DNA of 41,137 nt from the UHGV virus genome UHGV-0139000; one strand, written 5' to 3'. The stretch comes from a virus. The notes beneath the pieces were generated by a model that had not been told where the DNA came from, did not search any database, and saw nothing but the letters and a program-made list of their open reading frames with translations. This document shows, piece by piece, positions 33,308 to 41,087 of the stretch (its first letter is position 1; every line of letters starts with the position of its first letter). The translations under genes were made by a program, and so were the position numbers.

Positions 33308-33359
33308 CCCTACTTCATAGACGCCCGGTTAAACACCGGGCTACTGATTAGGCGTATAA

Positions 33360-33989
33360 TCACTCAGGAATCTTAATCTTTCTCAATTCTTTATTTAGTT
33401 CACAGATCTTTTTCTTAGACGGGAAAGTATCATACATCCAAAAACCAACAGTCTCTAAAACTATTATCATAACCATATACACAAGATAATTTAAAAGGCC
33501 TTCATTTTGCCCTATGGAAATAATGCAGATAATAGAAAAAAGGGTAAACAGCACAAAACACAGAAAGGAAAACAGACGACTAATAATAAATAAAAAACCT
33601 GAAAAATCAACATTAATAAAAAACACTCCGTTATCTTTCTCTATATAATTCTGAAGCTTAATCAACTGATTTATATACTGTCTTTTTTCTAATCTATTGC
33701 AAATGTAAATAACATCTCTTCGGTTATAAGAGGATTGCAATTTCAGCGCATCACGAATAATTTTATCATTTATTCTTTTTTCTATGGCTTTCTTATCCTC
33801 CTTATCCAGATAACGTTCATACTTAATTAAATATAAAATTAACTTCTTGACATATTTAGGCTCTTTATACTTATAATTAAAAATAATCTTTCTTATCCAG
33901 ACTCCCATAACAATCAAACATGAAAAAATATATCCAGCTATTTTCTCCAGATGCTCTGTATGGTCAATCAAGTATTGGATCATATGCAT
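33360..33989 (-). CDS. membrane protein (209 aa), antisense AT-rich insert in the replication operon
   Basis: One N-terminal and two C-terminal hydrophobic helices with a Lys/Glu-rich central region; strongly AT-rich codons; opposite strand to all neighbours; stem-loop at 33325..33343 on its 3' side. Confidence 0.6.
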   Translation of the reverse strand: MHMIQYLIDHTEHLEKIAGYIFSCLIVMGVWIRKIIFNYKYKEPKYVKKLILYLIKYERYLDKEDKKAIEKRINDKIIRDALKLQSSYNRRDVIYICNRLEKRQYINQLIKLQNYIEKDNGVFFINVDFSGFLFIISRLFSFLCFVLFTLFSIICIISIGQNEGLLNYLVYMVMIIVLETVGFWMYDTFPSKKKICELNKELRKIKIPE

Positions 33990-34035
33990 AATTAATCTTT
34001 TAATCAGTTAATAGAATAAAAACCAAGGTAAACAC

Positions 34036-36099: not shown

Positions 36100-36104
36100 C
36101 TCCT

Positions 36105-36320
36105 ATGTCATTTAAATACCGGGACAATCCACTTTATTACAGGGCTGCAAGGGAAGCTTTGCGACTTGAACAATCCGGCGAATATGACCGGGCAGCGGAG
36201 GTCTGGGCAAAAGCCAACCGCGAATCACATCACGAACTGAATCAGGAATGGAGTGAACGCAGATCTGATTTTTGCCTGATGCAGAACATGCGTGAAAAGC
36301 GTAAGGCGGTCGAAGAATGA
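36105..36320 (+). CDS. hypothetical small protein (71 aa)
   Basis: Translationally coupled within the replication operon. Confidence 0.45.
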   Translation: MSFKYRDNPLYYRAAREALRLEQSGEYDRAAEVWAKANRESHHELNQEWSERRSDFCLMQNMREKRKAVEE

Positions 36321-36616
36321 TCGTTTACGTTGCCGGGCCGATGAGCGGTTACGAGCAATTTAACCGCCCGGCCTTTCATTCCGCAGCAAAGAGGCTAACG
36401 GACAAGGGATATGTTGTGCTTAACCCCGCAACTTTACCCAATGGTTTGACACAGGCTCAGTACATGGACATCTGCCTCGCAATGCTTCGCTGTGCCGATA
36501 CGATTTATATGCTCAAAGAGTGGGAGTACTCTGCTGGCGCACGTGCAGAAAACGCGTTGGCAGAGAAACTGGAATTGAATGTGCTTTTTGAAGAGTGGGA
36601 TTCAGATGGCCTATGA
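36317..36616 (+). CDS. DUF4406-type protein (nucleoside 2-deoxyribosyltransferase-like fold)
   Basis: N-terminus MIVYVAGPMSG and overall size match the family as I recall it. Confidence 0.5.
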   Translation: MIVYVAGPMSGYEQFNRPAFHSAAKRLTDKGYVVLNPATLPNGLTQAQYMDICLAMLRCADTIYMLKEWEYSAGARAENALAEKLELNVLFEEWDSDGL

Positions 36617-36875
36617 ACGTGAAAGCCTTATCGAAAAGCACCTCGTCGCTGAAGTGAAAAAAGCTGGCGGAGTGGCCTTTAAGTTTGTATCTCCCGGTCA
36701 CCGCTCGGTACCGGATCGCATTGTCCTGCTACCAGGCGGTCGTATCGTTTTCGTTGAATGTAAATCTCCCGGCAAGCCACCACGGCCTGACCAGTTGCGC
36801 GAACATGAACGTCTGCGAAAACTGGGCTTTACCGTGGTGGTGCTGGATAGCAAAAATTTAGAGGGGATATTGTGA
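36606..36875 (+). CDS. VRR-NUC domain nuclease
   Basis: About 90 aa with ...PDRIVLLPGGRIVFVECKSPG... (D...E-x-K core); usual position beside the helicase. Confidence 0.65.
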   Translation: MAYERESLIEKHLVAEVKKAGGVAFKFVSPGHRSVPDRIVLLPGGRIVFVECKSPGKPPRPDQLREHERLRKLGFTVVVLDSKNLEGIL

Positions 36876-36880
36876 GACAA

Positions 36881-37606
36881 TCATTCTGAGCGATTTTTCT
36901 TGAGCTTAGAAGCTTTTAAAAAACATACTTTTAGTTGTTGTGTTTCTTTTATGCTTACAGGAATTAATTTCCCCTCAATTCCTTCGACACTCATAAATTC
37001 AGAGCTATTTTTTTTACAGTTCCCCAAGACAAATTTTCCGTTATAGCTTTCGATAATATAAGCATCATATTTTTTAGAATAAAAAAGAGGCTCATCTGAT
37101 AAGTATGCCCATGCCCACCCAAGGACTGAAGGAAGCATTGCTATGGATATAAAAAGCATAACCCCATGAGTTTTGTTTTTTATTCTAAATTCATTCCTAA
37201 TAAAAACAGATACTGCCCTGACACTGATAGGGCTAATAAATCCCAACAGTATTGCTTGGGTAGCCACATCCCTTATGGATTTTTCATAAAGGTATGAGCT
37301 ACCGCCATATAAATACATTGTCCAGTATGAAAGCAAAGAGGCCAAAATGAAGAAAAATAAATACACCCACCATGGAATATTCTTCTCTTCAGTATCAATA
37401 TGCAGCAAAGCGACTAAGGTGCACAAAAGTCCTAATGCAATAACAGAAAATTTAACTATTTCCTCAATCCCAATAGAAATAAAACTTACAGGGAATCCAT
37501 AAAATGAGCTGTACCCTTTGTAAAAAGAAAAAGCCATAAAATAAAGGGCGGCCAAGAGAACCGTTGTAATTGATAAATCTTTTACATTCATGATGTTCAA
37601 GAGCAC
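36881..37606 (-). CDS. polytopic membrane protein (241 aa), antisense AT-rich insert between VRR-NUC and helicase
   Basis: Four to five predicted hydrophobic helices in the first ~160 aa then a Lys-rich soluble tail; strongly AT-rich; opposite strand to both neighbours. Confidence 0.6.
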   Translation of the reverse strand: MLLNIMNVKDLSITTVLLAALYFMAFSFYKGYSSFYGFPVSFISIGIEEIVKFSVIALGLLCTLVALLHIDTEEKNIPWWVYLFFFILASLLSYWTMYLYGGSSYLYEKSIRDVATQAILLGFISPISVRAVSVFIRNEFRIKNKTHGVMLFISIAMLPSVLGWAWAYLSDEPLFYSKKYDAYIIESYNGKFVLGNCKKNSSEFMSVEGIEGKLIPVSIKETQQLKVCFLKASKLKKNRSE

Positions 37607-37629
37607 CTTTCTAATCAGGGATTTTCTTC

Positions 37630-39021
37630 ATGATAACTTTTAAACCACGTCCCTACCAAGATCTCATCATCAATCATCAAATCGAGACCCTGCGCGGCAA
37701 CATCTGGGCAGGGATGGGGATGGGTAAAACCGTAGCGACACTCACCACGCTGGAAGATCTTTTCATGGCTGGAGCAGAAACACGCCCCGCGCTGGTCCTC
37801 GCGCCGCTACGCGTTGCAGCAAGCACTTGGCCTGATGAAGCTGTTAAATGGGGGCATCTGCGTAATATTGAGGTACAGCCGATCATCGGTAACGCCAAAG
37901 CGCGCTCTACAGCGCTGGCGAACAGCAACGCGAGCGTGTTCACAATCAACTACGATAACCTTGTCTGGCTGGTTGAAGAATTGGGAGAACGATGGTCGTT
38001 CGGTACTGTCATTCCAGATGAAAGCACCCGGCTAAAATCCTTCCGGCTGCGAGGTGGTGGTAAGCGCGCGGCGGCGCTGGGCAAAGTGGCGCACAAGTAT
38101 GTCCGGCGCTGGATAAATCTCACCGGTACGCCAGCACCGAACGGCCTGGTAGATTTGTGGGGACAATCGTGGTTTGTGGACCAGGGGCAACGTCTCGGGC
38201 GCACTTACGGCGCGTTTACCTCACGCTGGTTCAAATCGATACAGTTTCCGGGGCAGAGCTGGACCAAACTGGAGCCTTTTGCTCACTCACAGGGTGAAAT
38301 ACAGCGAGCGTTAGCCGATGTGACCCTCTCGCTGGATGCGGCCGACTGGTTCGATATCAAAGACCCCATCCATAACGTAATCCGCGTGGATATGCCGCCG
38401 AAGGCCCGTCAGCAGTATCGTGAAATGGAAAAGGAAATGTTCCTCGAGCTGAATGGCGAAGGCATCGAAGCACCGAACGCCGCGGCAAAGACACTGAAGT
38501 GTCTGCAAATCGCCAGCGGCGCAGTATACACAGATGACACCGGAAGTTGGTCAGAACTGCATGACACCAAACTACAGGCGCTGGACAGCATACTGACCGA
38601 AGCAGCTGGCGCACCTGTGCTGGTTGCTTATCACTGGAAACACGATCTTGAACGCTTGCTTAAAGCATTCCCTCGCGGTCGTCACCTCGACCAGGCTCCA
38701 CAGACACTGCGCGACTGGAATTCCGGAAAGATTCCTGTTCTCTTTGCACACCCAGCCAGCGCGGGCCACGGCCTGAACATGCAGGACGGCGGAAATATAC
38801 TGGTATTTTTCTCACACTGGTGGGACCTGGAGCAATATCAGCAAATTATTGAACGTATCGGCCCAACCAGACAGATACAGGCCGGACACAATCGTCCGGT
38901 ATTTATTCACCACATTATTGCTGCCGACACTATGGACGAAATGGTGATGGAGCGGCGCAACTCAAAACGAACAGTGCAGGACATCCTGCTCGATGCCATG
39001 AAAAAGAGAGGTATAGCATGA
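37630..39021 (+). CDS. SNF2/DEAD-like superfamily 2 helicase
   Basis: Walker A AGMGMGKTV and DExx-like IPDESTRL; 463 aa; last gene of the replication operon. Confidence 0.7.
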   Translation: MITFKPRPYQDLIINHQIETLRGNIWAGMGMGKTVATLTTLEDLFMAGAETRPALVLAPLRVAASTWPDEAVKWGHLRNIEVQPIIGNAKARSTALANSNASVFTINYDNLVWLVEELGERWSFGTVIPDESTRLKSFRLRGGGKRAAALGKVAHKYVRRWINLTGTPAPNGLVDLWGQSWFVDQGQRLGRTYGAFTSRWFKSIQFPGQSWTKLEPFAHSQGEIQRALADVTLSLDAADWFDIKDPIHNVIRVDMPPKARQQYREMEKEMFLELNGEGIEAPNAAAKTLKCLQIASGAVYTDDTGSWSELHDTKLQALDSILTEAAGAPVLVAYHWKHDLERLLKAFPRGRHLDQAPQTLRDWNSGKIPVLFAHPASAGHGLNMQDGGNILVFFSHWWDLEQYQQIIERIGPTRQIQAGHNRPVFIHHIIAADTMDEMVMERRNSKRTVQDILLDAMKKRGIA

Positions 39022-39218
39022 GCGAGAAACCCGACGATTTACTCACCCCGGATGAAGTATGCCAAAAGTTAGGTATTACACAGAAAACGCTATGTGAGTG
39101 GAATATTAAGCATCGTCATCGGGCTATCCTGGCACCAATTCGTTTCAGTGCAAAAGTAGTTCGTTATGAGCGCCGAAATGTCGACGCTTTTATTCAAAAA
39201 TGTCGCAGCCAGTATTAA
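39018..39218 (+). CDS. excisionase / AlpA-like small DNA-binding protein
   Basis: 66 aa next to and overlapping the integrase 3' end; LLTPDEVCQKLGITQKTLCEW HTH-like segment. Confidence 0.55.
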   Translation: MSEKPDDLLTPDEVCQKLGITQKTLCEWNIKHRHRAILAPIRFSAKVVRYERRNVDAFIQKCRSQY

Positions 39219-40618
39219 CCTCGCCGCCGTAGCAATGCCACCTGCGCAAGTATGCTCCGCTCGTGAGCCTCGAAAGCTTCGCGCTTCAACGCAATCTCTT
39301 CCTGTAAAATCTCATCAGAAAAGTCGTAATGTTCTGCCATCGGGTCATCTGACTTGCTGGAGTGGTGAAGGCAAAGGAGGCTGATTTCCCTTCGGTCTGA
39401 GCGGGAATAGCCTCTTTCCTTCATCAAGGCAATAACATTGCTCTTAAGGAATTTACGGCACATCGTATTAAATGCACCGTCTTTCCCTTTAACAGTCCCA
39501 TCATGTTTTATTCCTTTTACAGCCCCGTCCGGGCTGTATGTTTTCACCAGCTTATCCAGTGATCGTTTTGAAAATGGCTGCATTGGATCACGTGGCTGCA
39601 AAAATACATAATCCCTGTTGCACTCAGGAACTGAATCACGCCAGGCTTTCTGCTCGTCGATAATCCGCCGGATCTCAGGCGTTATCGGCAGGCGGAAAGC
39701 CTTTTGTGTTTTCATAGCCCCTCGCATGCCGATAACCCCTTCCGGATAAACAATTTCACCAGCCTCCTCGTGAACGTAGTCCCAGCGCAGGTTATGGACA
39801 TTAATCGGACGAACACCAGTGATGATCATGAAACGAACAGCATTCTTCTGGTGTACAGAGGTGCAGGCAGCAACATTGAGCCAGAGTCGGGCGATTGATT
39901 CAATATCGGTAAAAAGCCGTGTGGGGGTAGGTTTCTGTACGCGGGAGGAAACATAATCATCTGGCAGACTGGCGGCAACATTGCGGCCGTTGCAAAGAGT
40001 AGGTGCGCAGAACTTCCAGAACCGACGGAGCTCGGCAAACAACTCCAGGGCGTTATTGTTCGAGCGAGTGGCGATCCACTCGTCCAGCACTTCCACCAGC
40101 CGACTGTATGTTACGTCGCTGAACACCTCGCGCTCGCCGAACGTTGATTTAATCCGGTCGATACGCACCCCGTAGGTTGTGAAACTGTCCGGGCTCAGCT
40201 TCTGACGGGCTACTTTGGCTTTGAGGTCATCCCGGTACATTTCCAGCGCTGCATGTACGGACTCTGCCCGCAGTCCACCGTCAGCCATACCTAGTGCTTT
40301 TTCGCGCGCCAGCTGGATAGCGAGCTCCGGCCACTCGCCGAGCTTTTTACCTTTGAGGCCCATCTTTTTTGGAAACTCGGCGTAAAATGTAACCTTACCG
40401 GCTTTGCTGAAATCGATACGGAGATAGTTCTCTTTTTCGTATTTGGAACGGCGAGCCACGCCGGAAGCAGCGAGGATGATTTTGGCGGCAGCAACACAGA
40501 TTTTCATGTGTGCGCTGGTATAAGGGGGTTTACAGGCGTCCCATTTTTCAGAAGCGGCTAAAACATCGTCATTATTGGGGCTATCCGGATTATGTGTTAC
40601 AGTGCGCGGCATTCTCAA
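39215..40618 (-). CDS. int: tyrosine integrase
   Basis: 467-aa ORF adjacent to attR with an N-terminal arm-binding-like segment; the true start may be an internal Met (e.g. MKICVAA). Confidence 0.8.
   Translation of the reverse strand: MRMPRTVTHNPDSPNNDDVLAASEKWDACKPPYTSAHMKICVAAAKIILAASGVARRSKYEKENYLRIDFSKAGKVTFYAEFPKKMGLKGKKLGEWPELAIQLAREKALGMADGGLRAESVHAALEMYRDDLKAKVARQKLSPDSFTTYGVRIDRIKSTFGEREVFSDVTYSRLVEVLDEWIATRSNNNALELFAELRRFWKFCAPTLCNGRNVAASLPDDYVSSRVQKPTPTRLFTDIESIARLWLNVAACTSVHQKNAVRFMIITGVRPINVHNLRWDYVHEEAGEIVYPEGVIGMRGAMKTQKAFRLPITPEIRRIIDEQKAWRDSVPECNRDYVFLQPRDPMQPFSKRSLDKLVKTYSPDGAVKGIKHDGTVKGKDGAFNTMCRKFLKSNVIALMKERGYSRSDRREISLLCLHHSSKSDDPMAEHYDFSDEILQEEIALKREAFEAHERSILAQVALLRRRG

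Positions 40619-40817: not shown

Positions 40818-41087
<270 letters not shown>

Follow-up and report, generated by a model that had tools for sequence, protein, structure and literature searches.

An antisense gene for a predicted membrane protein occupies an exchange slot in the replication operon of an Escherichia coli prophage

Genes and features of the locus

The window analysed here is the whole 41,137-nucleotide stretch of virus genome UHGV-0139000, and it is the right-hand part of an Escherichia coli prophage that is integrated beside yfhL. Near its right end a gene for a 236-aa membrane protein lies, on the opposite strand, between two genes of the conserved phage backbone. The features of this region are as follows.

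36579..36875, plus strand: VRR-NUC nuclease gene, left flank, conserved backbone (RefSeq annotation of identical loci; tblastn across loci)
36861..37645, no strand: exchangeable cassette (junction comparison of 15 loci; gap lengths and GC content of 44 loci)
36881..37591, minus strand: coding sequence of the 236-aa membrane protein (ATG at 37591; stop codon TGA at 36883..36881)
37606, minus strand: in-frame GTG of the same open reading frame, which would add 5 residues to give 241 aa (36881..37606)
37630..37659, minus strand: putative promoter-like site TTGGTA-N18-TATCAT (consensus scan), overlapping the first helicase codons on the opposite strand
37630..39021, plus strand: SNF2-family helicase gene, right flank, conserved backbone (annotation; Pfam SNF2-rel_dom in related loci)
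39215..40618, minus strand: integrase gene (annotation)
40827..41087: yfhL

The homologues of the membrane protein were 234-237 aa in length and had N-termini of the form MN[VIL]KDL, matching the ATG at 37591 of the window, and the NCBI PGAP annotation of strain MLI108K3 placed a 711-nt coding sequence at the same ATG. Since the homologue starts and the PGAP start agreed, the coding sequence was taken as 36881..37591, and judging from these alignments the true start is probably this ATG, giving a protein of 236 aa. An earlier note on this DNA had described a 241-aa antisense protein encoded 23 bp from the helicase start. An open reading frame of that length does exist from the GTG, which is 23 nt from the helicase ATG (37630), but the likelier ATG is 38 nt from it and the protein is likely to be the shorter one. 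The convergent near-overlap with the VRR-NUC gene reported in the same note was confirmed, as only 5 nt (GACAA) separate the two TGA stop codons. Also in agreement with that note, the AT-rich antisense pattern was the same as that of a second gene, at 33360..33989; the GC content of the variable segment (36876..37629) was 0.34, compared to 0.53 in the flanks.

Coding potential and expression signals

The coding status of the open reading frame was assessed against 2000 dinucleotide-preserving shuffles. The longest stop-free run at this position was 248 codons, compared to 70.5 ± 16.6 codons in the shuffled sequences, the maximum of which was 166, so that none of the 2000 reached the observed length. 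Pairwise dN/dS values among five homologues were 0.09-0.31, with the least saturated pair (dS 0.19) giving 0.31. Because the reading frame is longer than in any shuffle, has homologues and shows dN/dS values in this range, it is, on the comparative sequence evidence, a genuine gene under purifying selection.

The scan for promoters did not rise above chance, with two sites found and 3.1 expected, and no terminator was found. The hexamers and spacing of the promoter-like site were also present in loci L010 and L011, and the spacing was 21 in L006. No Rfam match was obtained anywhere in the whole window.

Exchange of cassettes between conserved genes

Of 5426 complete E. coli genomes, 158-159 contained the two flanks, in every case in the chromosome, and the 236-aa gene was present in 22 of these 159 prophages, the slot holding unrelated genes elsewhere. 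The proposal in the earlier note that the gene is accessory cargo and not part of the phage core was thereby upheld. The cassettes identified in the slot in E. coli were as follows.

22 E. coli genomes: the 236-aa gene (junction-spanning search)
11 E. coli genomes: a full-length BstA gene in the same antisense orientation (PADLOC, E = 1.4e-115)
20 E. coli genomes: a cytosine methyltransferase gene and a 106-aa open reading frame
24 E. coli genomes: a TIR-like gene

The remaining slot contents in E. coli included Rha/Arc/Ant modules (antirepressors) and other genes. Across 36 species-representative loci the gap between the VRR-NUC and helicase genes was up to 3.3 kb long and as short as 1-17 bp among the most distant relatives, where the two genes directly abut, and its GC content was almost always below that of the flanks. 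When species-representative, E. coli and phage loci were taken together, the slot was found to hold at least 21 clusters of open reading frames of 100 aa or more, among them DUF6338, KilA-N/ANT, Bro-N, Rha, Arc and SprT-like proteins, methylases, a dGTP diphosphohydrolase and a dCMP deaminase.

In a comparison of 15 loci, homology between carriers and non-carriers stopped within the last VRR-NUC codons and restarted at approximately codon 6 of the helicase gene. Since these limits cut into the ends of both flanking genes, each cassette brings its own helicase start codon and ribosome-binding site. The helicase N-terminus was observed to vary with the cargo over its first five to six codons (37592-37645 in the window), with MITFKPRP, MPKVFTPRP, MIKQFIPRP and other versions being seen. 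As judged from the junction sequences, the slot is a sharply bounded hotspot of recombination. Two hallmarks of moron or hotspot cargo were found here, namely patchy presence at a fixed position between conserved genes and a deviating composition; the GC content of members of the family was 0.28-0.39, compared to 0.44-0.62 in their helicase genes.

Two further exchange slots were identified in the early operon, between the DUF2815 and PolA genes and between the PolA and VRR-NUC genes. PADLOC candidates were detected in these neighbouring slots of carrier prophages, namely PDC-S25 (SIR2-like, E = 2.8e-158) and PDC-S35 (TIR, E approximately 1e-105). On these comparisons the 236-aa gene stands alone, is accessory and is maintained by selection in an Enc34-type temperate prophage, where it is located in one of three exchange slots of the early replication operon.

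The further slots of the window (33308-34035 and 36100-36580) were occupied by a 209-aa phrog_10579 gene and by ANR and DUF4406 genes. In related prophages their contents were Nmad5 with a 229-aa antisense open reading frame, HNH, the SIR2-like PDC-S25, the TIR PDC-S35, YfbU and DUF3268 (coordinates of such cargo: L061 10794-12296; L060 8954-9715; L005 310-1071). The 229-aa antisense product is a hypothetical protein (WP_000215799.1) that had no PADLOC match and was encoded beside Nmad5 in slot 1 of several carrier prophages (L055 16986-17675, minus strand; L063 and L064).

Distribution and diversification of the family

When 1.84 billion representative proteins were searched exhaustively with phmmer, only 26 relatives were returned at E ≤ 1e-3, nearly all of which were approximately 230-250 aa in length and were matched over their full length. 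The close relatives came from E. coli, E. albertii, Salmonella, Enterobacter and an insect symbiont, and the family was seen across gut- and insect-associated Enterobacterales; the names given in the source records were always "hypothetical" or "membrane protein". The window protein had no match in Pfam (E ≤ 1), NCBIfam, PADLOC or PHROGs. The unannotated family phrog_35408 was matched by 14 of 23 relatives (best E = 1.3e-8) and not by the window protein at E ≤ 0.01; the latter was tied to the matching relatives by phmmer, with E values of 6.5e-16 to 5e-4. Pfam analysis of all 23 relatives gave three single chance-level matches only, a search of PDB sequences with a profile of the family gave nothing credible, and a BFVD structure search gave no match at E ≤ 1e-3. 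When the window protein and the distant relative P0026 were used as tblastn queries against isolated phages and plasmids no match was obtained, and a single-protein scan of IMG/VR yielded two close copies only. A literature search by accession, PHROG identifier and DUF number returned nothing relevant to the family.

Of the 310 sequences in cluster P0001, 15 were listed, and these included several full-length proteins (236-237 aa) of E. coli, E. albertii and Salmonella. In the clusters P0001 and P0013 many Salmonella draft contigs (approximately 36.2 kb) ended inside the gene, giving dozens of "partial" proteins of 80-175 aa; these breaks are probably due to a coverage or assembly problem in an AT-rich, homopolymer-rich segment.

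Every genomic context recovered for the family was a prophage or a prophage remnant. Homologues with 48-77% identity to the window protein were located in the same slot and in antisense orientation, in some cases in prophages with a different integrase and attachment site, and the relatives P0033 and P0028 (24-29% identity) occupied the same slot of Enc34-type prophages. Cargo identity (24-99%) was decoupled from helicase identity (75-100%): at locus L006 the helicase was 94% and the cargo 48% identical, and at locus L011 the values were 79% and 74%, respectively. For the same pair of loci, the membrane-protein gene evolved several-fold faster than the adjacent helicase gene (dN 0.20 compared to 0.035). 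The gene had been called an insert in the earlier note, a term that could not be retained, because relatives down to 24% identity share the slot and the gene is thus not a recent insertion. In evolutionary terms, as far as the alignments and locus comparisons tell, it belongs to an allele class of long standing that diversifies at a recombination hotspot.

Other distant relatives were encoded near the integrase gene of unrelated prophages, antisense to their neighbours, and one was co-directional, following DnaB in the early operon of a lambdoid prophage. In an Enterobacter cloacae remnant (L013 8001-8711; L014 756-1466) the homologue was intact and only fragments of the helicase and polymerase genes were left; here the gene has outlived its prophage and may have been retained by the host. 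No conserved partner gene was found beside the family in the loci examined.

These contexts bear on two alternative functions. The first is a role in the lytic cycle of the phage, as a membrane anchor for replication, in exclusion during lytic growth or in the timing of lysis. The gene does lie inside the replication operon, phages from several genera keep it at this position, and the lambdoid relative points in the same direction as the early genes. However, 137 of the 159 E. coli prophages lack it although they are otherwise near-identical, and so do the related induced phages vB_EcoM-606R2, -689R2 and -611R5. Unrelated genes take its place, it is on the strand opposite to the operon, and frameshifts affect 12 of the 22 copies in E. 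coli (see below); a lytic function is accordingly quite improbable. The second is lysogenic conversion unrelated to phages, in which the protein would alter the physiology of the envelope (for instance through an effect on a transporter, a stress response or colonisation) to the benefit of the host. The intact gene of the decayed Enterobacter prophage, the spread across gut- and insect-associated hosts and a prophage-borne product that is predicted to be periplasm-facing and non-enzymatic are all consistent with this explanation. It was considered unlikely, since rapid diversification decoupled from the backbone fits antagonistic co-evolution better, phage-directed genes abound in the slot and in those beside it, and loss by frameshift is frequent in E. 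coli.

Predicted structure and topology of the protein

The structure of the protein was predicted with AF2 from a 23-sequence alignment (pLDDT 87.6, pTM 0.84). The regions of the protein and their coordinates are as follows.

37478..37564, minus strand: TM1 and periplasmic loop 1, residues 10-38, motif GYxxFYG(F/Y)PxxFI; the most conserved stretch of the alignment
37103..37477, minus strand: TM2-TM5 and short loops, residues 39-163 (hydropathy; AF2 helices at residues 42-63, 74-95, 106-132 and 140-163)
36884..37102, minus strand: C-terminal soluble domain, residues 164-236, predicted to be periplasmic; four to five beta-strands and a helix
37018..37016, minus strand: codon of the invariant C192
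36925..36923, minus strand: codon of the invariant C223

The model consisted of five long helices, then four to five beta-strands and a terminal helix, and Kyte-Doolittle analysis gave five hydrophobic segments. Both results are consistent with the four to five membrane helices expected in the earlier note, and both favour five. The number of lysine and arginine residues averaged 5.6 in the N-terminus, loop 2 and loop 4, compared to 1.4 in loops 1 and 3, and this bias was present in all 23 sequences. By the positive-inside rule, the N-terminus is predicted to be cytoplasmic, and loop 1 and the C-terminal domain periplasmic. The lysine-rich soluble tail that had been described was only partly substantiated: the C-terminal 69 residues contain 13 lysine and arginine residues, but the lysine-rich extreme tail is not conserved in distant relatives. 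From the charge bias, the domain to which it belongs is predicted to be periplasmic and not cytoplasmic.

In the alignment Y17 was invariant and G26, G32, P34 and I38 were near-invariant. The invariant residues of the family were a tyrosine and two cysteines, and the near-invariant ones were glycine, proline, isoleucine and phenylalanine, with no enzyme-like polar residue among them; the conserved residues thus do not look catalytic. Of 21 positions conserved at 70% or more, 12 fell in TM1 and loop 1, and the others belonged to the C-terminal domain or to the outer end of TM5. Only one of 67 columns was conserved in TM2-TM4, and none of 26 in the cytoplasmic N-terminus and loops, so that all of the conserved non-membrane positions were on the predicted periplasmic side. 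The sequence of TM2-TM5 was poorly conserved across the family, with the helices being kept. C192 and C223, both in the exported domain, were the only cysteines common to all members and, given this conservation pattern, they probably form a disulfide. The C-terminal domain gave repeated weak local matches to small barrels of the MazF/CcdB type and to SH3-like barrels, which serve as a fold-level description only. Overall, the model and the alignment suggest a polytopic protein of the inner membrane that carries all of its conserved features on the periplasmic side.

This pattern of conservation also bears on whether the protein is a toxin-type membrane effector of abortive infection, which would sense infection, collapse the membrane potential and kill the cell, as RexB-like or Abi pore proteins do. 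A polytopic, stand-alone protein would suit such a role, the slot also hosts the abortive-infection gene bstA and TIR-like effectors, and the recurrent frameshifts could reflect the cost of a leaky toxic membrane protein. We nevertheless regard it as an unlikely explanation. The cytoplasmic loops are 8-10 residues long with no conserved column, leaving no evident cytoplasmic sensor surface, there is no partner sensor gene, and TM2-TM4, the would-be lining of a pore, are the least conserved part of the protein.

Recurrent frameshifts in E. coli

One short tract within the coding sequence was found to be a site of repeated mutation.

37008..37015, minus strand: A8 homopolymer (T8 on the plus strand), directly after the C192 codon; recurrent +1 frameshift site

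Among the 22 complete E. coli genomes that carry the gene, the allele length was 726 bp in ten, 727 bp in 11 and 728 bp in one. The copies in 12 of 22 genomes were therefore frameshifted, and the changes arose independently at least three times. The inserted base, in those alleles that were inspected, was an A in the A8 run, converting it to A9, and the product was a 195-aa protein without C223. Truncation to this length was counted in 11 of the 22 genomes, and A34 brings the frameshifted copies to 12. The A9 tract was present on three allele backgrounds, namely the O26/O111 clade (O26:H11/O111:H11), M-17 together with the IMG/VR contig L057, and A34, the last of which carried a second +1 change in an A6 run (37176-37181).

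Selected phase variation was considered as an explanation and judged less likely, although the tract might switch reversibly. The length of the A8 tract changes repeatedly, but the tract is not conserved, since homologues encode CRKN, CINE or CKNN at this position, which precludes a long run of A. A simpler reading of the sequences is that the tract is a mutational hotspot with frequent loss of function, and the proportion of frameshifted copies indicates that the gene is often dispensable or costly. Because the O26, O111 and M-17 copies are truncated, functional work needs an intact allele.

The frameshifts raise the question of whether the gene is a decaying passenger that has no current function in E. 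coli and is kept by linkage to the prophage only. The +1 changes in 12 of 22 genomes, the repeated involvement of the same A8 tract (at least three times) and the two changes in A34 would fit with decay. Such a passenger status is nonetheless rather improbable, as purifying selection was evident across the family, several of the 15 sequences listed for the 310-member cluster were full-length, and the predicted fold was confident and was kept down to 24% identity.

Relationship to the gene at 33360..33989

The second antisense gene of the window (33360..33989), which encodes the 209-aa protein of phrog_10579, was found in 67 E. coli genomes. In the earlier note it was suggested that the two membrane-protein genes might be parts of one split system, and in the window both are indeed antisense and AT-rich and lie in the same operon. 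Both genes occurred together in at least four of the 22 E. coli carriers (three O55:H7 genomes and A4) and in at most 11, when independence predicts approximately 9.3, so that the co-occurrence search revealed no excess over chance. No homologue of the 209-aa protein was present in any of the loci outside E. coli that carry the 236-aa family. Furthermore, intact alleles of the 236-aa gene were paired with other cargo in slot 1. MLI108K3, which has the closest intact allele, carried Nmad5-type cargo in the other slot in place of the 209-aa gene, as did the O26 clade, M-17 and A34; in MLI108K3, the O26 clade and M-17 this cargo was Nmad5 with a different antisense open reading frame. A two-gene system divided between these two slots is effectively refuted by these results.

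Proposed function and comparison with known systems

The location of the gene, in a slot that also hosts BstA and TIR-like genes and beside SIR2 and TIR candidates, makes it plausible that it is defence cargo. We tentatively propose that the lysogen makes its product as a superinfection-exclusion factor that works at the level of the envelope, and put this at somewhat less than an even chance. Transcription from its own promoter, against the lytic operon, would allow the protein to be made in the lysogen, where it would act at the envelope. Its periplasmic face might bind the genome-delivery component of an incoming phage, or an inner-membrane host factor used by that phage, so that genome entry would be blocked without killing the cell. 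Fast, allele-like diversification would then reflect an arms race with the targeted phage proteins.

Several properties led to this proposal. The gene is confined to prophages, stands alone with no conserved partner, is constrained yet fast-diversifying and shares its slot with defence genes, and it is intact in the decayed Enterobacter remnant. The conserved surface of the protein is predicted to be periplasmic and non-enzymatic, with the two invariant cysteines in the exported domain.

Other observations argue against exclusion. The protein showed no sequence or structural likeness to a known exclusion or defence protein in the libraries searched. Expression is the weakest link, as the promoter-like site was at chance level and was not conserved in L006 and no terminator was detected; furthermore, the low GC content makes silencing by H-NS plausible. 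More than half of the E. coli copies (12 of 22) were frameshifted in at least three independent events, the neighbours in the hotspot include genes that are not for defence (antirepressors and nucleotide-metabolism enzymes), and the antisense layout is not universal, given the co-directional relative in a lambdoid operon.

Accessory cargo in a temperate-phage hotspot, possibly encoding an exclusion protein, is a well-known kind of gene. The cI-N region of lambdoid phages, for example, has been treated as an accessory hotspot (PMC8585504). The slot described here resembles such hotspots in its fixed position and in its alternative, compositionally deviant and often antisense cargo, which includes known defence genes. 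It differs in being inside the replication operon of an Enc34-type prophage and in having boundaries that cut into the ends of the VRR-NUC and helicase genes.

The nearest functional analogue, by comparison of general properties, would be SieA of P22, a prophage-expressed inner-membrane superinfection-exclusion protein of 162-164 aa with three predicted transmembrane helices (PMC10883804). Its three types are less than 30% identical and share the same helix pattern (PMC10883804). Like SieA, the 236-aa protein is a single small polytopic inner-membrane protein from the accessory genes of a temperate enterobacterial phage and belongs to a strongly split family, and the site of action proposed for both is the inner membrane and periplasm during genome entry. 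In contrast to SieA, which has no exported beta-domain, it is predicted to have five helices and an exported beta-domain with two cysteines. No match to annotated exclusion families was found in PHROG, Pfam or NCBIfam, and none in BFVD (E ≤ 1e-3); by these profiles the two proteins are set apart.

No description of the hotspot, the family or the combination of folds was found in the libraries and literature searched. A more far-reaching proposal, and one that we hold as doubtful, is that the gene represents a new family of single-gene, periplasm-facing anti-phage proteins, in which five helices and a disulfide-bonded small beta-barrel without a structural neighbour would block genome entry, and which would have diversified to 24% identity in one slot; this slot and its two neighbours would then be an undescribed defence hotspot, in which BstA, TIR and SIR2 candidates are joined by over 20 further families of cargo. 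If exclusion at the envelope proves true, the protein would be a structurally new family among the few known inner-membrane exclusion proteins and would provide a tractable one-gene system in E. coli. Approximately 3% of complete E. coli genomes have the three exchange slots, which also occur across Enterobacterales; as these slots hold BstA and PADLOC candidates, their unnamed genes are good candidates for the discovery of defence systems by position.

Two catalogued families were compared with the 236-aa protein. In Morganella and Trabulsiella prophages, similarly oriented genes for DUF6338 (PF19865) membrane proteins filled this slot, and the proteins were alike in size, in having N-terminal helices and in having a beta-rich C-terminal part. 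A distant relationship was rejected, since the hhalign probability was 0.07% and none of the 23 relatives matched the Pfam profile. The DUF6338 proteins in the gap between the VRR-NUC and helicase genes of L024 and L036 were 179-202 aa in length, and in E. coli genomes DUF6338 was listed beside TIR genes in this region. The matches of 14 of 23 members of the wider family to phrog_35408 indicate that the superfamily is already among the catalogued phage proteins.

BstA is a soluble, DNA-binding abortive-infection protein of prophages that acts at sites of phage DNA replication (PMC8585504). Its gene resembles the 236-aa gene in being single-gene accessory cargo in exactly the same slot and antisense orientation in 11 E. 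coli prophages. The proteins themselves differ, as the PADLOC model of BstA (an N-terminal HTH/KilA-N-like domain and the BstA C-terminal domain) did not match the 236-aa protein, whereas the slot-mate in L002 scored 1.4e-115. The position of BstA has been described as strikingly conserved downstream of the prophage repressor (PMC8585504). The BstA genes observed here in L002 and L003 (2071-3003), which are antisense between the VRR-NUC and helicase genes, are in a context different from the published one.
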